A stretch of DNA of 64,000 bases, taken from positions 3,897,824 through 3,961,823 of the forward strand of contig CAWJNV010000002.1 of the NCBI GenBank assembly GCA_963844325.1. The letters are read 5' to 3'. The notes below the pieces were generated by a model. That model was not told the origin of the DNA, searched no databases, and saw only the letters and a list, made by a program, of their open reading frames with translations. The position numbers and the translations under genes were made by a program. Of this stretch, positions 18,208-63,906 are shown one piece after another (the stretch's first letter is position 1; each line of letters starts with the position of its first letter). The DNA comes from an uncultured Sphingobacteriales bacterium (GTDB lineage: Bacteria > Bacteroidota > Bacteroidia > Cytophagales > 172606-1).

Positions 18208-18587
18208 GGAGACCCGAAAAGGTTGATTATGAATGTTTTAATTGGGCGTGTGTCCATCGGCCGATACCTTTTTTTAAGTACGTACGTGACCGCATAAGAC
18301 ACAACCACCTTGTCGCCGGGCCGCCGGGTACGCAGTCCCCCTTGCGGGTTGGCTTCAGGGGAGGGAAGGGGGGAGGGGGATGACTGGTTTACTTATCAAA
18401 TGACGCGACGTGACATAAGGCGCTGTAAGCCAATCGGCTGCTCTTTTGTTGCGTGCTCCGCGCCCCCGGCGGTTTAAAAAACAACCGCGTTCCCTCCTCC
18501 GGCCTCCTTTCCTCCGGTCTCCGGCCTCCTTTAACTTTCGGTCTCCCGTCTCCTTTTTTCCCTACCTTTGGTGCAATCCTTTCGATT

Positions 18588-18992
18588 ATGAAAACTGCCA
18601 GCAGCATCGTGCTCTTCGACGGGGTGTGCAACCTGTGCAACGGGGCCGTGCAATTCATCATCAACCGCGACCCGGAAGGGCGTTTTGCCTTTGCTTCCCT
18701 GCAATCGGCGACGGGGCAGGCCCGGCTCCGGCAGTTCGGGCTGTCTACGAATGCGTTGGACACGTTCGTACTGGTGGAAGGGGGGAAGGCCTACACCCGT
18801 TCCACGGCCGCCCTCCGCATCGCCCGGCGGTTGCCCGGCGCCTGGCGGTTCCTGTACGCCCTGATGATCATTCCCCGTCCCGTCCGCGACTGGGTGTACG
18901 GGCTGGTGGCCCGCAACCGCTACCGCCTCTTCGGCCGCCGCGACGCCTGCCTGATTCCCACCCCGGAGCTGAAGGCCAAATTCCTGGAATGA
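18588..18992 (+). CDS. Thiol-disulfide oxidoreductase DCC family (DUF393)
   Basis: MKTASSIVLFDGVCNLCNGAVQFI...  The FDGxCxLC motif is diagnostic of DCC proteins. Confidence 0.75.
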   Translation: MKTASSIVLFDGVCNLCNGAVQFIINRDPEGRFAFASLQSATGQARLRQFGLSTNALDTFVLVEGGKAYTRSTAALRIARRLPGAWRFLYALMIIPRPVRDWVYGLVARNRYRLFGRRDACLIPTPELKAKFLE

Positions 18993-24763: not shown

Positions 24764-24968
24764 CCGGATGGATCGGGATTAATCGGATTAAAGGATTAGC
24801 AGGATTACGACGACCGAAATCCTCTTAATCTTTTAATCCGGTTAATCCCAATCCTAATCCGGTTAATCTCAATCCGGTTAATCCCGATCCTAATCCGGTT
24901 AATCTCAATCCTAATCCGGTTAATCCCGATCCATCCGGTTAATCCTTTAATCTTGTTAATCCTGATCC
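24735..24968. repeat. 8-bp-word palindrome (ttaatcnn / nngattaa) spanning the 3' ends of two convergent genes
   Basis: gatcaggattaacaagattaaaggattaa (24736-24765) is the reverse complement of ttaatcctttaatcttgttaatcctgatc (24941-24965). Between them lie about 20 tandem 8-bp units (ccggttaatcccaatcctaat...). Confidence 0.8.
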
Positions 24969-27900
24969 TGGCTTCCTGACCCCTTCGGCAATCACCTCGC
25001 GGATGGCGTTGAGTCCTTCGCCGAGGGTGGAGAGTTGGACCATGAGCTGGCCCATCTGGTCGCCGGAGGCGAGGCCCTTGAACTGCTGGTTTTTGCGGAA
25101 AGTCGTTTTGATCTCCGTCCAGCGGGCTTTTTCCTCCTCGGTCAGCAGGCCGTTCAGTTCCTTGAACTTGAGCAGGTTGGCTTCCGCGCCGGTGGTCAGC
25201 GTCTGGGCCTCGTTTTCGTAGTGCGAAAGGATCAGCGTGCGCAGTTCGGCCTCGTTCATGATGGCTACCACCTTGCCGGCAATCTTGTTCATGTTCCGGT
25301 ACGAACCCTGGAGCTTGAACGGCGGTTCGGTACGGAACTCATCGGCTTGAGCCGCCGAATGGATGTACTGGAGGTTGTTGCGCAGGATGAAGTCGCGCAC
25401 CACGAACAGCTTCTTGAGCACGGCCACGTATTCGTTCAGTTCTTCGGCCGCGTAGCCCGCGTCAAATTCCAGCCCGTCCTGGCTATCCGTTTCGGCCAGT
25501 TTGATCAACGTGTAAATGTCCTTCTGGCTCCTCGTGAGCAGCTTGTTGAGGGCCGGGTTGGCCGTGAGGCAGTTTTCGATGTAGCTGAGTTTAAAAATGC
25601 TTTCCGTGTCGCCGATGATGTCACCCAGGTTGTAGGTGTCGGCCCGGTTGGCCAGCATGTCGGGAATTTTGAACTTTTCGCCGCTCTCCGTGTAGGGGTT
25701 GCCGGCCATCACCACGCACACTTTCTTGCCGCGCAGGTCGTAGGTTTTGGGCTTGCCCTGGTAGACGCCCTCAATGCGGCGCTGTCCGTCGCAGAGGGAA
25801 ATGAATTTTTGCAGGAATTCCGGGTTGCAGTGCTGGATGTCGTCCACGTAGATCATCACGTTGTCGCCCATCTCGAAGGCCAGGTTCAGCTTGTTCATCT
25901 CCTCGCGGGCCCCGGCGTTGGGGGCTTCGGCGGGGTCGAGCGACGTAACCCGGTGCCCGATGGCCGGCCCGTTGATCTTCATGAAGATGAGGCCGAGCCG
26001 GTTGGCGACGTACTCCATGAGGGTGGTTTTGCCGTAGCCCGGCGGCGAAATGAGCAGCAGCATGCCCATCAGGTCGGTGCGTTTTTCGGCGCCCACCACC
26101 CCGATCTGCTTGGCGAGGTTGTCGCCGATGAGGGGCAGGTAGAGCTGGTCAATGAGCTTGTTGCGCACGAACGAGGTCAGCACGCGGGGCGTGAATTCCG
26201 CCAGGCGCATCTCCTTCCGCAGCCCTTCGGCCAGCGATTTTTTGCGTTCGTTGAATTGCAGGTAACGCGGTACGGTTTGCCCGGCAAAGCCGGAAAGCCT
26301 TGCCAGGAATGCGTTGAAGTGCAGCGCGTAGGCGTGGTCCCGGATGACCGGGTGCGTGCCGAGCAGGCCCGTCACGGTGCGGCGGGTAGTGGCCGGCACG
26401 ACGCGGCCGCCGTCGAAGCTGCCCAGAAAAAGCAGGGCGGCCGTTTCGTCCACGTAGTCGGCGGCGTCTTCGATCTTGGTGAGGCACTGGCCCACGAAAG
26501 CCTTTACCCAGTGGCGGGCCATGGCGAACCGTTCGGGCGGGGCGGCTTCCAGTTGGGCCAAAGACTGCCGGAAGGTGGTTTCGTGTCCCTGGGCGTGCAG
26601 CGACTCGTGGAAGGCTTCGTACAGCCCGGCGGCTTCGGCGCTGATGATGAACGCATCGCCGCGGGTCAGTTCTTCGAACAGGTAGTCGGCGGCCGGTCCG
26701 GCCAGCGCCGGGTCGAGCAGTTTGGTTTCGGCCACGAACGTTTCCAGTTCATGCCGGAGGTCGGCCAGCACGCTGCCGAAGTCGCGGGTGTGCGGGAATA
26801 CCTTGCGGATGACGCCGATGCCTTTGATCTGGTGGTGCAGCAGCGCCTTGCGGTCGGCGGGAACGAAGCTCTGCCAGTACAACGCGGCCAGGGCCCGGGC
26901 CGGGGCCGCAAAACGCAAGAGGTCGATCTGCCCGTCCAGGTCGAGCAGGGCTTTGAGGAGCAGGGCGGCGTCGTGGTCGTGCACGCCCTTGACGTAGCCT
27001 TCCACGTAACGCGGGGCCATGTAGGCCTGCACGTACGCCAGCAGGGCATCACCCGAAAGCCCGGCCAGTTGGGCCCTGGAGAGATTGTCGCCGGGAGCCG
27101 GTTTGTGGCCGGCCGGCAGGGACCCGGTGCCCGGCGCGGCGGTGGCCTGCCCGTAGATCTGGTAAGCCAGGTACTCGGCCCGGTACACGTCCCCGTTTTC
27201 AGAAACCAGTTCCTGGCCCCACAGGTCGCGGTTGGTGAGCAGGTCGGGGTGGGAGAGGGGTTCGTAGAAGTTGGTGCCGGTCAGGTGGTAATACATTTCC
27301 CCGTCGCGGGTAAGGATGGTCAGGTCCAGCGGCTGGGTGTTCACCGAAAAGGCGTGCTTGCCCAGGCGGATCACGTTCTGGCCGTCCACGAACAAGTCCT
27401 GGCGGTCTTTAAGCTGCCGCACGGCGTCTTCCCGAATGGTTTTGAGGCGGCTCTCGATCTCGTCGGCCTTCACGGGGTCTTCCATCGCCGTGAGCTGCGC
27501 CACGATGTCGCGCACCTTGCCGATCATCAGGTCGCCGGCGAAGTAGCCGTTGATCTCGTTGACGGTCTTGAAGCCGGCCACGCGGTTGGCGATGCCCTTC
27601 AGGATGCGGTCGGCGGCCGACAGCAGCGACTGGGCCCGTTTGTTGCGGGCGTCGGTGAGGACCTGCTTTTTGGCCTCGAAGGCGCTGTACGTCTCTTCGC
27701 GTTTGCCGGCCAGCAGCGTAATGAACTCGTCGAACTCGGCAAACCTGCCTTCCAGTTCTTCCAGTTGCACCATCAGCTTGGTCAGGTACTCGTCGCACCT
27801 GGCGGGGGTGTCGCACACGTCGAGGTAGTTGATGATGCCCTGGGCAATGAGCTTGAGCTGGGCGGCAAATTCGGCCTGGGCCTCCGTGCCGAGCAGGTCC

Positions 27901-29939
27901 CGCTTCCGCGACTTGAGGGTGGCCTTGGCCCCGTTCAACTGGGCGTAAATACCCGAAATGCCGTCGATGATGGCCGTGGTCTGGGTGGAATCGTCGATCT
28001 TGAGGTTGCTCACGATTTCGATGAGCAGGTCGAGTTCCTTGCCGGTGGCGTCGAGTTCGGCTTCGCGTTTCTGGGCGTCGGCCACCTTGGTGATGCCGGG
28101 GATGCCCGCCTGCCGGGTTTCTACTTGCTGCCGGTAGTACTTGAGCGAATCAGGGTTGAGCAGGAAGGTAACCGTGTCGGCAGAGAGTTGCCGGGTCTGG
28201 GCTTCCAGGACTTCTTCCTGGGCGGCCACGACCGCCAGGTCCACGTACCGCAGGTCTTTGAGCGAAATCACCTCGCCGCGCAGCCCGCGCAGCGACGCCA
28301 GGGCCTGCACGAACTTATCGACCTGGTCAAAGGGCGTTTTTTTGATCCCTCCCACCAGGGCTTTTACCTGCCCCACCACCGCGTCGGTCCGGGCCTGCGT
28401 GTTCTTACGCACCCGCACCACCTTTTCGAATTCCTCGATGGCCGACGAGGCGGCGGTACGAATCTCCGCAATGGCCGCATTGAGGTTAAACGCCTCTTCG
28501 GACTTGAGCCAGTAGTAGGTGTCCTGCATGCCGCCGGTCTTTTTCACCAGGTCGGAGTACAAGGTGGCGTACACGTCCTCGCGGCCCACCAGGTTGATCA
28601 CGTCGTGGGCCTCGGCCATGGCCCGCACAATGTCCTTGTTGCCGATCTTGTAGAGGTAGTTGTCGGTGCTCACGGGCGGCACGTAGTCGGCCCCCACGAA
28701 GGGCGTCTGCCACACCTGGATGAGGTGGTTCTTGCCCGGCTCCTCCTGGGAACGGAAGTAGCAGAGTTCGCCGTTGCCGAACAGCGAAAAGCCGTTGCAC
28801 AGCACCGGGTTCTCCACTTTCTGCTCGATGAGGTTGTAGGGCAGCAGCACGTAGGTGCCCGTTTCGAGGTTGTGGAACACGTACAGCACGTCCTCGCCGT
28901 TGGGCGACGGAATGGTTTTTTCGAACTGCATCCCGCCGGGCAGGTTGTCGAACTGCTTCACGCCGCCGCTCTGGAGGTAGTAGCCGTTGGCAAAGAGCAG
29001 GCCCTGGCCGTCGGGCAGCAGCACGCAGGCTTCGCCGATGGCGTCGATGCGGAGGGCCTTTTTGAGCTTGTCGTTGAAAACGATGTAGCGGTAGTCCTTT
29101 TCCTGGTAGGGCCGCACTTTGAGCAGGATCAGGTTGCCCAGGCCCGCGTAGAAAAATTCGGCGTCGTCGAGCGACTGTTCGGCGTGTTCTACTTTTTCGG
29201 AAAAAATACCCTCGCCGGTGTCGGTGTTGTCTTCGACCTTGATGGTGAGGTCGCCGCCGACGGTTTCGACGAAAATGCGGTCTTCGACGGAAATGTGGGG
29301 GTGCTTGCCCTTGCGCTGGTAGTCGCGCCGGGTGCGTTTCCACTCAAATTCCTGCTGGGGCGGGAACTTGAATTCGTGGTCGCTGCGGTTGTCGAGGTAG
29401 TGCAGCCCGTCGCCCTTGATGAGCCACTTAAAGGTTTTGATGTCGCGCACGCCCTTGCCGATGCGGAACACCATGAACAGGTGCGGCCCGATGATGGCAA
29501 ACTTGGTGAAGGTGGTGAGCTTGTAGTACTTGTAGAGTTCTTCTACCTGCCCCTCAAACTCGGCGTTGCGGATCAGGTCGGGGGGTTGCTGGTGGAAGGA
29601 GTGGTCGCCCTTGTCGAACGAGAACACGCTGAACACGTCCGACAGGTCAATTTCTGACTTGAGTCCCAGGTGCACGTTGTAGCCGAAGATGAACAGGCGG
29701 CCCACCGGGATCATGTCCTGGGGAATGCAGTTGTGTTCGGTAACGATCCGGTTGTTGGCAATCAGTTTGGTTTCGATGGAGCCGAATACCTCCTTGCGGG
29801 CCGCGTTGAGCCCTTTGAGCCGGTCGCGCAGGTCACCGGCGTGGCTTTCGAGCCGCTTGCGGATGATCTCGTATGTGCCGCTTTCGAGCTGGACGGCGGG
29901 GGCAGGGGTGGGCAGGGTGGAGGTATCGGTGGCGGCCAT
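24939..29939 (-). CDS. Giant (1666-aa) multidomain P-loop/AAA+ ATPase: N-terminal beta-rich region, long coiled-coil, C-terminal AAA+ module
   Basis: Walker A LLLISPPGYGKTTLMEY; Walker B NVMIYVDDIQH; sensor-1-like VCVVMAGNPY; Arg-containing KIPDMLANRADTYNL. The central ~600 aa is strongly coiled-coil-like. The likely start is ATG at 29939 (MAATDTSTLP). The ORF-track start at 30017 would extend into REP sequence. Confidence 0.7.
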   Translation of the reverse strand: MAATDTSTLPTPAPAVQLESGTYEIIRKRLESHAGDLRDRLKGLNAARKEVFGSIETKLIANNRIVTEHNCIPQDMIPVGRLFIFGYNVHLGLKSEIDLSDVFSVFSFDKGDHSFHQQPPDLIRNAEFEGQVEELYKYYKLTTFTKFAIIGPHLFMVFRIGKGVRDIKTFKWLIKGDGLHYLDNRSDHEFKFPPQQEFEWKRTRRDYQRKGKHPHISVEDRIFVETVGGDLTIKVEDNTDTGEGIFSEKVEHAEQSLDDAEFFYAGLGNLILLKVRPYQEKDYRYIVFNDKLKKALRIDAIGEACVLLPDGQGLLFANGYYLQSGGVKQFDNLPGGMQFEKTIPSPNGEDVLYVFHNLETGTYVLLPYNLIEQKVENPVLCNGFSLFGNGELCYFRSQEEPGKNHLIQVWQTPFVGADYVPPVSTDNYLYKIGNKDIVRAMAEAHDVINLVGREDVYATLYSDLVKKTGGMQDTYYWLKSEEAFNLNAAIAEIRTAASSAIEEFEKVVRVRKNTQARTDAVVGQVKALVGGIKKTPFDQVDKFVQALASLRGLRGEVISLKDLRYVDLAVVAAQEEVLEAQTRQLSADTVTFLLNPDSLKYYRQQVETRQAGIPGITKVADAQKREAELDATGKELDLLIEIVSNLKIDDSTQTTAIIDGISGIYAQLNGAKATLKSRKRDLLGTEAQAEFAAQLKLIAQGIINYLDVCDTPARCDEYLTKLMVQLEELEGRFAEFDEFITLLAGKREETYSAFEAKKQVLTDARNKRAQSLLSAADRILKGIANRVAGFKTVNEINGYFAGDLMIGKVRDIVAQLTAMEDPVKADEIESRLKTIREDAVRQLKDRQDLFVDGQNVIRLGKHAFSVNTQPLDLTILTRDGEMYYHLTGTNFYEPLSHPDLLTNRDLWGQELVSENGDVYRAEYLAYQIYGQATAAPGTGSLPAGHKPAPGDNLSRAQLAGLSGDALLAYVQAYMAPRYVEGYVKGVHDHDAALLLKALLDLDGQIDLLRFAAPARALAALYWQSFVPADRKALLHHQIKGIGVIRKVFPHTRDFGSVLADLRHELETFVAETKLLDPALAGPAADYLFEELTRGDAFIISAEAAGLYEAFHESLHAQGHETTFRQSLAQLEAAPPERFAMARHWVKAFVGQCLTKIEDAADYVDETAALLFLGSFDGGRVVPATTRRTVTGLLGTHPVIRDHAYALHFNAFLARLSGFAGQTVPRYLQFNERKKSLAEGLRKEMRLAEFTPRVLTSFVRNKLIDQLYLPLIGDNLAKQIGVVGAEKRTDLMGMLLLISPPGYGKTTLMEYVANRLGLIFMKINGPAIGHRVTSLDPAEAPNAGAREEMNKLNLAFEMGDNVMIYVDDIQHCNPEFLQKFISLCDGQRRIEGVYQGKPKTYDLRGKKVCVVMAGNPYTESGEKFKIPDMLANRADTYNLGDIIGDTESIFKLSYIENCLTANPALNKLLTRSQKDIYTLIKLAETDSQDGLEFDAGYAAEELNEYVAVLKKLFVVRDFILRNNLQYIHSAAQADEFRTEPPFKLQGSYRNMNKIAGKVVAIMNEAELRTLILSHYENEAQTLTTGAEANLLKFKELNGLLTEEEKARWTEIKTTFRKNQQFKGLASGDQMGQLMVQLSTLGEGLNAIREVIAEGVRKPGSGLTRLKD

Positions 29940-29954
29940 TGGAATTACTGGTTG

Positions 29955-30060
29955 ATATTTGGGATAGGGTTGAAACCCTATCCTATGGATATTGGGCGCA
30001 GAAGCTTGTATCTTCAACCATCTCGTTGGTAGGATAGGGTTTCAACACTATCCTACTGAT
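29955..30060. repeat. REP-like palindromic units (ggatagggtt-aaaccctatcc) downstream of RAYT gene
   Basis: gggatagggttgaaaccctatcctatgg and ggtaggatagggtttcaacactatcctactg are separated by ggatattgggcgcagaagcttg. Confidence 0.75.
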
Positions 30061-30075
30061 CGGAGACGGTGGGGG

Positions 30076-30516
30076 CTACGGTTCAATGCCAAGGGGAATA
30101 ATGGATGTCCTCAGCGATTCGAGTTCGGCTTCGAAGCCTACCGTTTTGTGGTGCGTCTCCTGGTTCTTGATGTAATTCCGCACGCGTTGTACGTTGGATG
30201 GGCTTACTGAAAAAGCGGCGTAACCATCCTGCCACTCGAATGGCCCCTCCATCAAGCCTTGCCGGTTCAGCCAGTGGGACGAAGCACCTTTGATGTTTTT
30301 GGCAATCTGGCTGATTGAAAGACTGGGCGGCACCGAAAACAGGCAGTGTACGTGATCCTCCACGCCGTTGATGAAATCCAGCTGATACCCCTTCTGCGCC
30401 GCGATGATCCTGATCTGTTTATACAAGGGAATGCGAATTGACTTGTGCAAGATGGGCTCCCGGTTCTTGGTTGCCCAGATCAGGTGAACCCAGAGTGCAG
30501 TAAAAGTTTGTGGCAT
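30076..30516 (-). CDS. IS200/IS605-like Y1 (HUH) transposase, REP-associated tyrosine transposase (RAYT)
   Basis: MPQTFTALWVHLIWATKNREPIL...EDHVHCLFSVPP (HuH motif)...conserved Tyr region (QDGYAAFSV). It is about 147 aa and flanked on both sides by inverted REP clusters. Confidence 0.8.
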   Translation of the reverse strand: MPQTFTALWVHLIWATKNREPILHKSIRIPLYKQIRIIAAQKGYQLDFINGVEDHVHCLFSVPPSLSISQIAKNIKGASSHWLNRQGLMEGPFEWQDGYAAFSVSPSNVQRVRNYIKNQETHHKTVGFEAELESLRTSIIPLGIEP

Positions 30517-30609
30517 TTGCAGGAATAGAAAAGAGTTTGGAACAAGGTTTTGACCCTGTTTCATTCATTAAAGCGAACGTTGAAAAGAAGGAGTCGAATG
30601 TGCTGTGAT

Positions 30610-30880
30610 TGAGTAGGATAGGGTTCGGGGAATAGGAATAGGGTTTGGATATGGGATAGGGTTAAAACCCTATCCTATGGATATTGGGGAGGAAGCTTGC
30701 TAGGTTGGTCATAGCTCAGGTAGGATAGCAGGATAGGGTTTAAACCCTATCCTGCCAATGGGCAAATTGAACCCGCGAACCCAATATCCATAGGATAGGG
30801 TTTTAACCCTATCCCATATCCAAACCCTATCCAAAAAAAACATCCCGCCAACGCTACTCGCCCCGAACCCTATTCCCCAA
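30610..30880. repeat. REP/BIME-like cluster (ggatagggtt-aaaccctatcc units) upstream of RAYT gene
   Basis: At least four units: gggatagggttaaaaccctatcctatgg, caggatagggtttaaaccctatcctg, ataggatagggttttaaccctatcc and others. The same spacer motif ggatattggg..gaagcttg occurs as in the downstream cluster. Confidence 0.8.
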
Positions 30881-30892
30881 ATCCCCCCAGCC

Positions 30893-33109
30893 CTACAACA
30901 CCGACGTCGCCTTCCGTTCCGAAATTCCGCTCTTCTCGGCCGTATCCAGCAATTCGGCCAGCACGCCGCGGAGGCCGTCGTCGTGGGTCATCGTGATCAT
31001 TTTCACGATCAGGGCCGAGATCGTCAGGTTCTTGATGTCCTCCGATTTGAGGTTGAACTGGCCGACGAACTTCTTGAGGTTGTCGCCCAGGCTCACGTCC
31101 TTGCCGTTGGCGTCCTTGCCGTTGCCGTTGCCGAGCAGGGCCGTCTTCACGCCCTTGATCACTTCGCTATTGTTGACGAAGCTGTCCACCGACTTGCCCT
31201 TGGTGATGGCACCCATGATGTTTTCGTAGAACATCGTTTCGCCGCCCACGATGCTGATGTTGGAAGCCTTCAGCGCCTCGCTGATCACGCTGGCCTGGGC
31301 GTTGGCAATGTCCTTCTGAATGTTGATCTGGGCCAGGGCAATGTCGGTTTCCTGCTGCACGCGCAGCTTGAACTCCTCGTGCTCCTTGCCCACCCCGTCG
31401 AGCTTTTTCATGGCGTTGGCTTTGGCTTCGATGCCCAGGGCGTCGGCCAGGCCCTTCTTCTCGCGGACGTTGGCTTCGGCCAGGCCTTCTTTTTCGAGGG
31501 CTTCGGCTTTCGATTGCGTTACCTTGGCTTCGGCCAGGCCCTTCTTCTCCAGCACGCCGGCCTCCACCAGTCCTTTCTTTTCCATGACCCCGGCTTCCAC
31601 AAGGCCCTGCTTTTCGTCCGCTTCAATTTCGGCCTGCCGCTTCACTTTGATGCCGGTGGCTTCGGCAATGGCCCGCTTTTCGATGATGACCGCGTCCACC
31701 AGGCCCTGCTTTTCGTTGGCGTCGGCCTTGGCTTCCAGCACCCGTACTTCGGCCAGCCCCTTGGCGGCTTCTTCCTTTACCCGGGCGTCGGCCAGGAGCT
31801 TCTTGGCTTCGGCCGTCTTTTCGGCGGCCTGCCGGTCGGCGTTGGCCTGGATGATGGATTGTTCGGCGCGTAGTTCGGCGGACCGCTTGTCGGCTTCGGC
31901 CGACTTGATCTGCTGCACGAGGGCTTCTTCGGCGACTTGCTCGGCGTGCTTGATGGCCACCGACTTTTCGCGTTCGGCCGTGGCAAAGGCCCGGGCGTCT
32001 TTGATGAGTTCTTCTTCCACCACCACGGCCTTTTCCACCACTACGCGTTCGCGGATCACTTCCTGGATGTTCTTGCGTTCTTCTTCGAGGGCTTTTTCTT
32101 TTTCAATGCGGGCCAGTTCCACGATGCGTTCCCGTTCGTTGGCTTCGAGCATCTGTTCGCGTTTCACCCGTTCGTTTTCCACGGCCTCGGTTTTCTCCTT
32201 GCTCTTCTGGGCCACCACGATCTGGCGCAGCTTGTTCTGCTCGGCCACCTGGAGTTCTTCTTCCGTCTGGATGCGGGCCCGTTGCGATTTAAGCCGTTCT
32301 TCCTGGGTAACTTTCTCGGTTTCGGCTTCTTCGCGGGCTTTGATGGAGGCAATTTCCCGCTTCTGCTTTTCTTCCTTTTCGGCCAGCTGCTTGTTGAGTT
32401 CGAGGATGGCTTCGCGGGCCTCCACGTTCTGCTTGGTGATCACTTTTTCCTCCTCGCGGCGGATCAGGTTGGCCTTGATCTTCTGCTGGGCGGTGAGTTC
32501 GGTGATCTTCTTGATGCCTTCCGAGTCGAGGATGTTGTCGGCGTTGAGGAAGGTGATGGGCGTCTGTTCGAGGTAGTCGATGGCGCAGTCGTCGAGCACG
32601 TAGCCGTTGAGGTCGCGGCCGATGGCTTCGAGGATTTCGTTCTTGAACTTCTCGCGGGAGTCGTAGAGTTCCACGAAGTCGAACCGTTTGCCCACGGTTT
32701 TGAGGGCTTCGGAGAACTTGGCTTCGAAGAGTTGCACCATCTGGCCGGGGTCGGAGGCCCGGGCGCAGCCGATGGACTGGGCTACTTTCTCCACGTCTTC
32801 CTTGGTTTTGTTGACCCGCACGAAGAACGCCACCTTGATGTCGGCCCGCATGTTGTCCTTGCAGATGAGGCCTTCCTTGCCCACGCGGTTGATCTCAATG
32901 CTCTTGAGGGAGGTCTCCATGATTTCGAGCTTGTGCAGCACCGGAAACACGAACATGCCGTTGAAGCTCACGGTCAGGTCGCCGAAGCCGGTACGCACCA
33001 GGGCGGCACCCTGCTGTACTTTCTTGTAACAGTTGAAAATCAGGGCAATGAAGCCGAACAGGAACACGGCCAGGATGACCGTAACCGCAATGGTAAGATT
33101 TGCAAGCAT
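30893..33109 (-). CDS. Flotillin / SPFH (band 7) domain protein, YqiK-like, with long coiled-coil and EA-repeat region
   Basis: 738 aa. It has an N-terminal TM helix, then an SPFH domain (ALVRTGFGDLTVSFNGMFVFPVLHKLEIM...) and extended E/A/K-rich coiled-coil with flotillin-type repeats. Confidence 0.8.
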   Translation of the reverse strand: MLANLTIAVTVILAVFLFGFIALIFNCYKKVQQGAALVRTGFGDLTVSFNGMFVFPVLHKLEIMETSLKSIEINRVGKEGLICKDNMRADIKVAFFVRVNKTKEDVEKVAQSIGCARASDPGQMVQLFEAKFSEALKTVGKRFDFVELYDSREKFKNEILEAIGRDLNGYVLDDCAIDYLEQTPITFLNADNILDSEGIKKITELTAQQKIKANLIRREEEKVITKQNVEAREAILELNKQLAEKEEKQKREIASIKAREEAETEKVTQEERLKSQRARIQTEEELQVAEQNKLRQIVVAQKSKEKTEAVENERVKREQMLEANERERIVELARIEKEKALEEERKNIQEVIRERVVVEKAVVVEEELIKDARAFATAEREKSVAIKHAEQVAEEALVQQIKSAEADKRSAELRAEQSIIQANADRQAAEKTAEAKKLLADARVKEEAAKGLAEVRVLEAKADANEKQGLVDAVIIEKRAIAEATGIKVKRQAEIEADEKQGLVEAGVMEKKGLVEAGVLEKKGLAEAKVTQSKAEALEKEGLAEANVREKKGLADALGIEAKANAMKKLDGVGKEHEEFKLRVQQETDIALAQINIQKDIANAQASVISEALKASNISIVGGETMFYENIMGAITKGKSVDSFVNNSEVIKGVKTALLGNGNGKDANGKDVSLGDNLKKFVGQFNLKSEDIKNLTISALIVKMITMTHDDGLRGVLAELLDTAEKSGISERKATSVL

Positions 33110-33111
33110 AG

Positions 33112-33278
33112 CGTATGGGAAAATGGAATTTGATTGCTCGAAGGGAATGGTACACGGGATAATGGTGCACTGATTGGTTATGATGATTATGGTTTATTAT
33201 GATCTTTTCTCCGAACCCTTTTTTAAATCAGTCCCAATCATACTCATCATAATCAATCCGTGTACCATCAAACGGGTA
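33112..33278. repeat. 8-bp-word palindrome (gattatga family) inside the yqiJ-flotillin operon
   Basis: ggtacacgggataatggtgcactgattggttatgatgattatggtttattatgatc ... cataatcaatccgtgtaccatcaaacgggtac. A second copy of this family is at 51565-51698. Confidence 0.7.
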
Positions 33279-33935
33279 CTATTTAACCAGCGTACTGTCG
33301 CCGGTGTCGTAGGGCTCAATGAGAAAAGTGTGGTCTTTTTTATCGTAGTCGATGATCAGTCCTTTTTCGCCGCGGGCCATGCGGTTGCCGGCGGTGGTAC
33401 GTACGGTGAGCAGGAGGGGGGCTCCGCGCTGAATGGGCACTTCGGCCTGCCCGATCTTTTTGTCATTGACCGGCAGCACCACCGTACACGTCCGGCCGAT
33501 CACCTGTTGGTTGCCTGCCACCTCGTTGGGGTCTTCGCGAAAAATCCACTTGAGGGGGCTGGTGACCAGTTTGGTCAGGAGCAGGCTCACCAGCAGGTTG
33601 GGTACCAAGAGCAGCAGGCTCATCCACGCGGGACCGGGCAGGTAGTAGTTGCCCAGGATGGCGCCCACCCACAGGAACAGGGACGTGAAGCTGATCAGGA
33701 TCATGAAGGGCACCGAGCCTACGTTGAAAAAGGCCAGCACCACGCCCCACCAGCCCGCCTGGAGGTCCACCTCCACGTTGACGCCTTTGTCTACGTGCAG
33801 GTCGTGATGGATCTGGAACTGTCCCAGGTCGAGCACCCCCACGATGACCGAAGCCCAGTACAGCAGCACCAGGATCAGCAGGAGCGTAAAGGGAATGTTC
33901 ACCGGCGCGAAAGCGAAGTGTAGCAGTTCAATCAT
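33279..33935 (-). CDS. NfeD-like/YqiJ-family inner-membrane protein (TM helices + C-terminal OB-fold)
   Basis: 218 aa. It has multiple TM helices, then VIGRTCTVVLPVNDKKIGQAEVPIQRGAPLLLTVRT (an NfeD short-form OB domain). This is the usual partner of flotillin (the yqiJ-yqiK arrangement). Confidence 0.65.
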   Translation of the reverse strand: MIELLHFAFAPVNIPFTLLLILVLLYWASVIVGVLDLGQFQIHHDLHVDKGVNVEVDLQAGWWGVVLAFFNVGSVPFMILISFTSLFLWVGAILGNYYLPGPAWMSLLLLVPNLLVSLLLTKLVTSPLKWIFREDPNEVAGNQQVIGRTCTVVLPVNDKKIGQAEVPIQRGAPLLLTVRTTAGNRMARGEKGLIIDYDKKDHTFLIEPYDTGDSTLVK

Positions 33936-51553: not shown

Positions 51554-51564
51554 CTAAAATGAAG

Positions 51565-51698
51565 GGTACACTGACATTGGTACACTGATCGGTTAGGATG
51601 ATTATGATTTTTTATGATCTTTTTTTAGCATTCTTTTCTGATTCGTTTTAATCATAATTATCATAACCCATCAGTGTACCATCCATCCGTGTACAAAT
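51565..51698. repeat. 8-bp-word palindrome, second copy of the gattatga family seen at 33112
   Basis: ggtacactgacattggtacactgatcggttaggatgattatgatt ... aatcataattatcataacccatcagtgtaccatccatccgtgtac. Confidence 0.7.
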
Positions 51699-62930: not shown

Positions 62931-63438
62931 ATAGCTAGTATTTTGAGTCAGTTGAGACATGGGTTGAGGACATGGGTTGGTACAAGTACCGGAAACAGGC
63001 ATTACGGGCAGCCACAGCAAGGGCAACCCGGCAAGCAGGGTCGGGCGGACGGGCCATTGGGGTCCTTTTCGCCCTTTTTGCCACCAAGACACTACGGCAC
63101 GAAGGAGCACCAGGAGAAACCCCTGCGCGTACCGGCACCACAAGCCGGGTGCGGCCGGAACAGCGGTCAGACAAACTCCCGGGGCGGCGGATGATTGCAT
63201 AAATAATCTTTAGGAATCTTCAGGAAAAACGGGCAACAGCGTGCCGGGCAAAAACACATAACGGACGAAATGCCGGATACGGGATAGCCGGTCCGGAGAA
63301 AGTATTTTACTGCTTTGGTTTAGAAGTCGGTTTCACGAAAAAGAGGGTTTCACGAAAAAGTGGGTTTCACGCAAAGACGCAAAGGAAGACCGCAAAGGGC
63401 GCAAAGAAGGAGCCCTAACTGCCGCATTCTCTTTCTTG

Positions 63439-63742
63439 CGTCGCAAAGGGCCGCGTCGCGGGAAAGGGTCGCGTCGCGGCTCCCCTCCTCGGAGGGGTTA
63501 GGGGGTGGGTTTACCTCCATGCGACGAGCTATATAGGGATCACCGCATTGCGTTGATCTCCCTCACACCACTGCTAAACTTTCTGCGAATTCTCCCTTCT
63601 GCGGAATTCCCATTGTGGTGATCCCCAGATCACGCGGGGCATGGAAGTAAACCCACCCCCTAACCCCTCCGAGGAGGGGAGCCGCGACGCGACCCTTTCC
63701 CGCGACGCGACCCTTTCCCGCCATGCGGCCCTTTTGCGACGC
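63439..63742. repeat. Large inverted repeat (~75-bp arms, ~130-bp centre), MITE-like
   Basis: gcgtcgcaaagggccgcgtcgcgggaaagggtcgcgtcgcggctcccctcctcggaggggttagggggtgggtttac is the reverse complement of gtaaacccaccccctaacccctccgaggaggggagccgcgacgcgaccctttcccgcgacgcgaccctttcccgcc...gcgacgc. Confidence 0.75.
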
Positions 63743-63755
63743 AAGGAAAAGTAGC

Positions 63756-63906
63756 GTGCTATACTAAGGTGCAAGACCTCACCCCCGGCCCCTCTCCCAA
63801 GGAGAGGGGAGAATAACCTGTTTTATAATAACCTGTTTGACAAATATTTATGTCTCCCCTCTCCTTGGGAGAGGGGCCGGGGGTGAGGTCTTGCACCTTA
63901 GTATGG
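63756..63906. repeat. Nested palindrome of the cccctctcc/ggagagggg family (intact copy of the 45795-46140 element)
   Basis: tatactaaggtgcaagacctcacccccggcccctctccc aaggagaggggaga ...loop... tctcccctctcc ttgggagaggggccgggggtgaggtcttgcaccttagtat. Confidence 0.75.

Follow-up and report, generated by a model that had tools for sequence, protein, structure and literature searches.

A small transposase gene and two clusters of palindromic repeats occupy the spacer between a flotillin-family gene and a giant ATPase gene in the 64-kb window analysed here (the whole stretch of DNA, from an uncultured Sphingobacteriales bacterium). Gene and repeats probably make up a long-resident, vertically inherited system in which an IS200-like Y1 transposase of subclass 1.2 is paired with its cognate hairpins. 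Such a system resembles those of the tyrosine transposases that accompany repetitive extragenic palindromes (REPs), known as RAYTs, and lies outside the canonical TnpA_REP family. RAYT and REP systems are well known, as are REPINs, in which REPs form hairpin doublets; REPIN–RAYT systems are the main case in bacteria of intragenomic replicators that are long-lived and passed on vertically. To our knowledge, they have been characterized almost exclusively in Proteobacteria, with class-2 enzymes. The system described here departs from the known RAYT/REP systems in its enzyme branch (class 1, subclass 1.2), in its phylum and in the near-perfect form of its palindromes.

An IS200-like transposase of the subclass 1.2 type

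The transposase gene lies at 30076–30519 on the minus strand. Its open reading frame (ORF) spans 30076–30564 on that strand, and the start used in database homologues is ATG 30519, which gives a protein of 146 aa. Database protein P0001 is 100% identical to it. A first-pass annotation of this locus, made from the DNA letters, had called an IS200-like HUH transposase from an HVHCLFS motif. That call is borne out: the gene is intact, and its product matches the Y1 transposase family (PF01797, Y1_Tnp) at E=1e-29. The motif reads EDHVHCLFS in full; the HUH motif is H55-V-H57 and the catalytic tyrosine Y115 of YIKNQETHH. No variation is seen at H55, H57, W95-Q96, Y115, Q119 and H123 across an alignment of 44 homologues, and almost none at H122. 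H55-V-H57 and Y115 line up with the corresponding motifs of ISDra2 TnpA. The NCBIfam equivalog model for IS200/IS605 transposases (NF033573) accepts the protein, which scores 80.5 bits where 55 are required. The same model matches all 44 aligned homologues, and the score of P0001 there is far above its score with the NCBIfam model REP_Tyr_transpos. The closest solved structures are the transposases of ISDra2 and IS608 (E ~1e-10; ISDra2 TnpA, 2XM3, E=8e-11), not a REP-associated enzyme. Named homologues come from metagenome-assembled genomes (MAGs) of Bacteroidia, Chitinophagales and Saprospiraceae.

Subclass 1.2 is defined by the motifs DH[IV]H, WQ and Y---Q--HH and a length of ~148 aa, and is found in Cyanobacteria and Bacteroidetes (Quentin et al. 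2018, BMC Genomics 19:475, PMC6006769). The window protein has the motifs DHVH, WQ and YIKNQETHH, conserved F/E positions beyond HH and a short conserved tail. Its motifs, its length and its short tail appear to fit subclass 1.2, an assignment that is made at the level of motifs. The likeness appears to extend to the occurrence in Bacteroidetes and to the lack of IS-like duplicates (IS, insertion sequence) among the loci compared. Subclass 1.1, to which IS200/IS605 elements belong, differs in having Y[IV]ENQ (Table 1, PMC6006769), where the window protein has YIKNQ..HH. Subclass 1.2 is listed without REPs and without IS200-type terminal structures (PMC6006769). Here, in contrast, palindromes flank the gene and 67/72 homologue loci, and are dispersed in one related genome.

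Palindrome clusters on both sides of the gene

The repeat unit is strongly concentrated at the gene. With at most one mismatch, the unit GGATAGGGTT matches 17 times in the 64 kb, where 2.8 matches would be expected; 0/100 shuffles reach that count, and 14 of the 17 fall within 29962–30875. The clusters that the first-pass annotation had placed on both sides of the gene are there, as five full palindromes and additional half-sites. Full palindromes GGATAGGGTTnnAACCCTATCC lie downstream of the gene at 29962–29983 and 30032–30053, and upstream of it at 30654–30675, 30731–30752 and 30793–30814. Half-sites at 30616, 30636, 30823 and 30866 are stacked outside, on the upstream cluster. In pattern form the repeat unit is GGATAGGGTTNNAACCCTATCC; the palindrome-containing stretch taken as the presumptive substrate is CCCAATATCCATAGGATAGGGTTTTAACCCTATCCCATATCC.

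The upstream cluster (30612–30884) is a REPIN-like compound palindrome. Arm A (30638–30688) and arm A' (30780–30830) form a 51-nt inverted repeat with 100% complementarity around a central palindrome (30728–30755). The outer half-site layers (30612–30645 and 30822–30884) form outer stems that are complementary too. As a single strand, the whole cluster takes the form of one long hairpin (fold energy −170 kcal/mol as RNA, z=−13.7). Single palindromes have fold energies of −6 to −13 kcal/mol as single-stranded DNA (ssDNA). On the downstream side, the proximal palindrome (30029–30056) begins 19 nt past the transposase stop codon and carries one stem mismatch (GGATAGTGTT; −6.4 kcal/mol as ssDNA, z=−2.9). 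It aligns with the downstream palindromes of two related loci, L066 and L068. The distal REP arm (29950–29996; −8.3 kcal/mol as ssDNA, z=−4.4) stops 10 nt short of the ATPase start codon.

A spacer, TATGGATATTGGG..GAAGCTTG, is common to both clusters, as had been noticed earlier. The two clusters had also been described as lying in opposite orientation, which applies to part of the arrangement. In the left, downstream cluster (29950–30056), an arm, the GAAGCTTG spacer and a palindrome reproduce the initial two-thirds of the right cluster as a direct, partial copy on the same strand; the right cluster is itself an inverted doublet. Only the outermost copies, 29950–29996 and 30780–30826, are inverted with respect to each other, with 89% complementarity. 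The foot of the hairpin is CCATAGGATAGGG in the window, CCGTAGGGCAGGG in L068 and ATAGCGATGGG / ATAGCCCATGG in many homologues. Lineages with CCACTAGCT and CCCCGGCC have no GTAG-like tetranucleotide at the hairpin foot. A search of the whole window with Rfam returned no family; the repeats do not correspond to any known structured RNA.

History of the locus in relatives

Five related loci, reached through flotillin homologues (L063/L064, L066, L067 and L068), were compared with the window. Both presence and absence of the transposase gene are seen at the orthologous position: it is found in L066 and L068, and is missing in L063/L064 and L067. In L066 the order is flotillin gene, repeat doublet with central palindrome, transposase gene (84% aa identity) and a palindrome at the contig end. 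In L068 a 68-nt perfect palindrome is followed by the transposase gene (72% aa identity) and a 38-nt palindrome, with the ATPase start 20 nt further on; both flanking palindromes are altered together, to GGGCAGGGTTTAAACCCTGCCC. L063/L064 and L067 have spacers of 221 nt and 320 nt that hold an unrelated inverted-repeat element, the arms of which are arrays of GGAGACCGGAGG. Every close relative has some inverted-repeat element in the flotillin–ATPase spacer.

Synonymous divergence (dS) of the flotillin gene orders these lineages. L066 and L063 are closest (0.19), the window joins them at 0.29–0.31, L067 stands at 0.72 and L068 at ~1.3. The gene is thus present in the deepest branch and in two shallow ones, which makes it ancestral to the group and twice lost (in L063/L064 and in L067). 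The ratio of non-synonymous to synonymous divergence (dN/dS) of the transposase gene is 0.165 between the window and L066 and 0.076 between L066 and L068. Sequence comparison thus fits a transposase that has been long resident at the locus, through speciation and under purifying selection, and disfavours a recent insertion. The first-pass annotation had described an insertion inside a flotillin–ATPase operon. The position between conserved same-strand genes stands; a recent event does not, as the gene is syntenic to a flotillin dS of ~1.3 and under purifying selection.

Between the window and L066 the REP arms are identical at 79/80 positions, the transposase coding sequence is 82% identical, and the spacers between the arms are, by eye, about half identical, with indels. 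The arms are therefore the most conserved DNA of the region. Changes that did occur preserve pairing. The central palindrome shows a compensatory double change between the window and L066, from GGATAGGG/CCCTATCC to GGATGGGG/CCCCATCC, with the stem kept. The two outer sides of the doublet (window 30612–30884, L066 3513–3730) differ by mutually complementary indels. The leader between the upstream cluster and the transposase start (30520–30611, minus strand) is partly shared with L066 in a block TTC.CTTTAA..GATG.AA.

Dispersed copies in a related genome

The exact 22-nt pattern was scanned in one genome per species. The matches listed comprise 62 stretches, and 43 of these belong to a single MAG, that of uncultured Cytophagales bacterium AVDCRST_MAG56 (MAG56). 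This genome is related to that of the window: an 87%-identical gene and recognizably orthologous intergenic DNA are common to both. The 43 stretches hold at least 61 exact sites, and at least 77 sites with up to 3 mismatches. At least 15 of the MAG56 copies are inverted doublets, spaced 82–209 nt apart, with half-site outer layers like those of the window's upstream cluster. The inner flank of these doublets, TA[CT]GGATATTG... / ...CAATATCCATA, matches that cluster as well. No transposase homologue is encoded in the 43 listed MAG56 stretches. The listed sites are largely extragenic: 49/61 lie outside any ORF of at least 200 codons, and such ORFs span ~84% of the bases of the stretches.

One orthologous intergenic region is polymorphic in occupancy between the two related genomes. 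Downstream of the 87%-identical gene, MAG56 has a GGATAGGG doublet (L019, 6700–6880), whereas the window has a different inverted-repeat element (~63300–63720). A Flavobacteriales MAG carries at least four dispersed copies. One lies 140 nt upstream of a transposase homologue with 38% identity.

Single matches to the 22-nt core in MAGs of Clostridium, Desulfobacterales and Muribaculaceae were considered as a sign of very wide conservation and rejected, chance being a plausible source. By a rough estimate that was not computed, a few dozen hairpin-tip matches could plausibly arise by chance in 596 Gbp, and only genomes with multiple copies were counted.

Many of the 22-nt cores cap longer hairpins with copy-specific outer stems (in L001–L062; for example L034 7541–7598, L061 3898–3971, L048, L055, L056 and L062), and 13/47 of the listed singlets have at least seven further perfectly complementary bases beyond the core. 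Such stems, like the complementary indels between the window and L066, suggest that cores inserted into palindromes already present or that palindromes grew symmetrically.

The GGAGACCGGAGG arrays of the transposase-less relatives, which also occur in the form CCTCCGGTCTCC, are seen elsewhere too. In L063 (8188–8225 and 8358–8395) and L067 (8150–8180 and 8415–8455) they are the 38-nt inverted arms that edge the spacer. In the window an array lies at 18493–18555, a short way upstream of the ORF that starts at 18589, and in MAG56 they often border GGATAGGG doublets. Candidate identities for these arrays are a target, a promoter-proximal element and a second repeat family.

Palindromes at homologous genes

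The association of gene and palindrome holds across the family. Eighty metagenomic homologue loci (43–71% identity) were collected, of which 72 have at least 150 nt on both sides of the gene. A palindrome with a stem of at least 9 bp lies no more than 200 nt from the gene on both sides at 50/72 loci, and on at least one side at 67/72. The palindromes are specific to lineages (for example ATAGCGATGGGTTTCAAACCCATCGCTAT, ATAGCCCATGGTTTAAACCATGGGCTAT, CCACTAGCTTTAGCTAGTGG and CCCCGGCCTTCAGGCCGGGG), and their centres usually resemble TTTAAA or TTCA. Among pairs of proteins that are less than 35% diverged, the palindromes differ by 3.5 mismatches of 11, compared with 5.9 in permuted pairs, and 0/5000 permutations reach the observed value. 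A global Mantel test of protein distance against palindrome distance is not significant (r=0.03), because most pairs are saturated. Contig ends were used as a proxy for repeat copies: 4/28 ends near homologues coincide with a palindrome, which gives no signal.

Comparison with known systems and proposed mechanism

The canonical examples of RAYT/TnpA_REP systems are TnpA_REP of E. coli K-12 and RAYT–REPIN of Pseudomonas fluorescens SBW25; groups 2 and 3 of Bertels correspond to subclasses 2.2 and 2.5 of Quentin. The window system shares with them an HUH/Y1 enzyme, cognate palindromes on both sides of the gene (three upstream, two downstream) and inverted doublets that form a long hairpin. It also shares purifying selection, probable vertical inheritance and extragenic repeats that are free of transposase genes, the last being seen in the related genome. 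It differs in that the window protein is of class 1 (IS200-like) rather than class 2 and lacks the class-2 tyrosine motif YIxxNP. With the NCBIfam REP_Tyr_transpos model (NF047646) the protein scores 28.7–29.2 bits and fails the cutoff of 80, and its motifs are those of subclass 1.2; the first-pass call of a textbook RAYT has to be given up. Its palindromes are near-perfect, with a TTTAAA-type centre, whereas the canonical repeats are bulged GTAG-REPs.

Elements of the IS200/IS608/ISDra2 kind (subclass 1.1) are the best sequence and structure relatives. They have in common with the window system a hairpin–gene–hairpin order over 0.6–0.9 kb and subterminal hairpins on the same strand. Differences are the lack of tnpB, synteny across species and a dN/dS well below 1 in the window system, as well as an extra inverted arm that produces a REPIN-like doublet and the transposase-free copies in MAG56. 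A RAYT-like group within IS200, Group 3, lacks duplicates and is absent from plasmids, and its flanking 16-mers are abundant (21 occurrences; Bertels, Gallie & Rainey 2017, PMC5581495). It behaves like the window system; its identity with the window family could not be confirmed, and repeats are not described there. In the literature found, no REP or REPIN is described for Cytophagales or Hymenobacteraceae, nor are repeats for subclass 1.2, which is not proof of their absence.

The following mechanism is proposed. (i) By analogy with TnpA of IS608 and ISDra2 and with E. coli TnpA_REP, the enzyme would recognize the GGATAGGGTTnnAACCCTATCC hairpin on single-stranded DNA, together with a conserved foot (CCATAGG... 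/ ...TATGGATATTG). (ii) Cleavage and rejoining would take place beside the hairpin, mediated by the HUH motif and Tyr115. (iii) The gene itself would have stopped proliferating. (iv) Hairpins, as singlets or as inverted REPIN-like doublets, would spread by copying in trans to further sites outside genes. (v) The hairpins at the gene would be conserved as binding and cleavage sites of the transposase. (vi) The source genome of the window would be expected to hold a dispersed population of the repeat.

A wider proposal is more tentative, and our confidence in it falls a little short of even. Subclass-1.2 Y1 transposases may constitute a second REP-associated lineage, arising from within the IS200 branch, possibly domesticated independently and widespread in Bacteroidota, with near-perfect palindromes that diverge along with the enzyme and seed REPIN-like doublets. 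If so, Y1 transposases and hairpin repeats may have been domesticated jointly on more than one occasion. The published, REP-less description of subclass 1.2 would be incomplete, and the picture of this subclass as one without cognate DNA structures would need revision. A small, tractable enzyme (146 aa) and a simple, near-perfect 22-bp hairpin substrate would also be at hand for biochemistry. For annotation, some Bacteroidota proteins labelled 'IS200/IS605 family transposase' probably do not belong to mobile ISs.

Alternative explanations

The gene and its palindromes could instead be an ordinary IS of the IS200 type that is old, present in very low copy number and rarely moves. Its palindromes would then be subterminal end hairpins, partly duplicated, with no independent population of REPs. 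We consider this unlikely, although a series of results weighs in its favour and against a RAYT-like system. The protein fails the REP_Tyr_transpos model and passes the IS200 equivalog model. The nearest solved structures are likewise ISDra2 and IS608 TnpA. Hairpins lie on both sides of the gene, and arm A and the distal downstream arm (30642–30688 and 29950–29996) are direct copies of each other (89%), as the left and right ends of IS200 are. L068 has a minimal hairpin–gene–hairpin unit of ~600 bp. Homologues with 80–90% nucleotide identity often share just a module of 550–750 bp, made up of gene and palindromes, in differing contexts; the module therefore does move or transfer on long timescales, in the manner of an IS. 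No copy of the palindrome is found in the other ~63 kb of the 64-kb window. At most homologue loci the palindromes are confined to the immediate flanks, with a copy in the next ~5 kb to either side at 3/39, and abundant dispersal of the kind seen in MAG56 may be exceptional. The likeness of palindromes among related genes is, moreover, also expected from plain linkage.

Rates of divergence add to these points. Transposase dS between the window and L066 is 0.66, twice the 0.29 of flotillin. We tentatively attribute the excess to weaker codon bias; the alternative is that the two genes have not strictly descended together. The G+C content at third codon positions (GC3) of the transposase gene is 0.66 in the window against 0.81–0.85 in its neighbours, 0.64 in L066, and 0.40 against 0.62 in L068. 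It is thus 0.15–0.22 below that of the neighbours in three lineages, yet, as fits a long-resident gene, it tracks the G+C content of the host (30076–30519 in the window; L066, 3818–4258; L068, 6001–6432). Low expression, mutational bias and a different history are candidate causes of the GC3 deficit and the raised dS.

Five observations speak against an ordinary IS. The gene has kept the same position in three lineages up to saturated synonymous divergence with a dN/dS of 0.08–0.17, whereas a lone immobile IS is expected to decay. Near-identical gene copies in different contexts are absent among the 80 loci, where such copies share the same context only. Subclass 1.2 averages 1.7 copies per genome with 36% mutual identity (PMC6006769). 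Transposase-free doublets of the repeat are dispersed over at least 61 sites in MAG56. Finally, the extra inverted upstream arm, which completes a REPIN-like hairpin, is superfluous for the end of an IS.

A role for the palindromes as host regulatory or RNA-structure elements of the flotillin–ATPase pair (terminator, attenuator or stabilizer of mRNA), with the transposase as a passenger, is improbable. The hairpins are stable, and all relatives examined have a long spacer with some inverted-repeat element (221, 320 and 372 nt in L063, L067 and Pontibacter, respectively), as this explanation would have it. However, the elements of transposase-less relatives, with their GGAGACCGGAGG arms, are unrelated in sequence. 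The type of palindrome tracks the transposase and not the locus, being present in unrelated contexts at 67/72 homologue loci, and the repeat recurs at many unrelated MAG56 loci. A terminator scan found no intrinsic terminator in the window's flotillin–ATPase spacer, nor any U/T tract. It is very improbable that the locus is a relic with no present activity, its transposase gene dead and its repeats fossils. In favour of a relic, copies are lacking elsewhere in the window, transposase GC3 is well under that of the neighbours and one downstream palindrome is already degenerate. Against it, no catalytic residue is missing from the intact ORF, purifying selection has acted over a long divergence, the 51-nt inverted arms are perfect, and the arms are 99% conserved with respect to L066 while the spacers diverge. 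An old transposase that has remained together with its own hairpins is the explanation that we consider most probable.

Genomic neighbourhood

The window has a G+C content of 61%, and the genes around the locus are on the minus strand. As the first-pass annotation had it, the transposase gene lies between flotillin and ATPase genes of the same strand, and both are conserved neighbours. The upstream neighbour is a flotillin-family (YqiK-like) gene (30893–33109, minus strand), the homologues of which are named flotillin family protein or YqiK; it has no Pfam match at E≤0.01, despite 8000 homologues. The downstream neighbour (24939–29939, minus strand) encodes a 1666-aa ATPase with DUF3686, DUF7902 and AAA+ domains (PF12458, E=2e-185; PF25472; AAA). 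In the ORF list this gene carries a 26-codon N-terminal extension from TTG 30017 to ATG 29939 (29940–30017, minus strand), which crosses the REP cluster. Gene calls of orthologous ATPases, together with identity in the start region, place their start at the equivalent of ATG 29939 (ATGGCCGCCACCGATACC). The extension is therefore an artefact of the ORF finder, as the first-pass annotation had suspected, and the repeats account for this false addition to the 1666-aa protein.

Relatives of the flanking genes are those of Hymenobacter, Pontibacter and Rufibacter. In Hymenobacter and Pontibacter, too, flotillin and ATPase genes are adjacent and lie 3' of PspA and YqiJ-like genes, and the spacer between them is long or occupied by another small gene. 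In the window this spacer measures 953 nt from the flotillin stop to the ATPase start and is wholly occupied by the one small gene and the two repeat clusters. As the element takes up the entire spacer on the coding strand, any read-through transcript would carry stable hairpins. These could, speculatively, alter the processing or stability of a flotillin–ATPase read-through transcript; modulation of the gene pair by the element is likewise a matter of speculation. A sigma-70 scan found a single weak promoter-like site, within the central palindrome, although such a scan is uninformative for Bacteroidota promoters. In the leader (30520–30611) there is no sigma-70-like promoter, a Bacteroidota-type promoter having been sought by eye only.

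The surrounding genes (window 24939–33935; also L148 and L149) form a conserved Hymenobacteraceae cluster that includes a 1660-aa DUF3686–DUF7902–AAA ATPase. Its members are a YbjN/CesT-like protein, PspA/IM30, a small membrane protein, a YqiJ-like membrane protein, flotillin and the giant ATPase. PADLOC assigned the flotillin, the transposase and the YqiJ-like protein to no defence system, and the cluster is likewise unassigned; for the ATPase it gave a weak P-loop match to IetA and nothing more.

Other repeats are found in the window and in MAG56. An inverted-repeat element of ~110 nt (GGTACACTGATTGGTTATGATGATTATGATT...AATCATAATCATCATAACCAATCAGTGTACC) occurs in the window at 33157–33266 and 51563–51682, and in MAG56 in L003 (3775–3898) and L004 (7582–7696). 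One copy occupies the spacer between the YqiJ-like and flotillin genes, so that each spacer of the gene cluster holds a different repeat. A large inverted repeat with arms of ~95 nt (GGGAAAGGGTCGCGTCGCGGCTCCCCTCCTCGGAGGGGTTAGGGGGTGGGTTTAC...) lies at 63452–63547 and 63618–63710. Homologous copies in both orientations are present in L025 and L039 of MAG56, and the repeat is thus a family common to both genomes that resembles miniature inverted-repeat transposable elements. Adjoining it, at 63770–63900, is a second long inverted repeat, formed by GGTGCAAGACCTCACCCCCGGCCCCTCTCCCAAGGAGAGGGGAG and its reverse complement.

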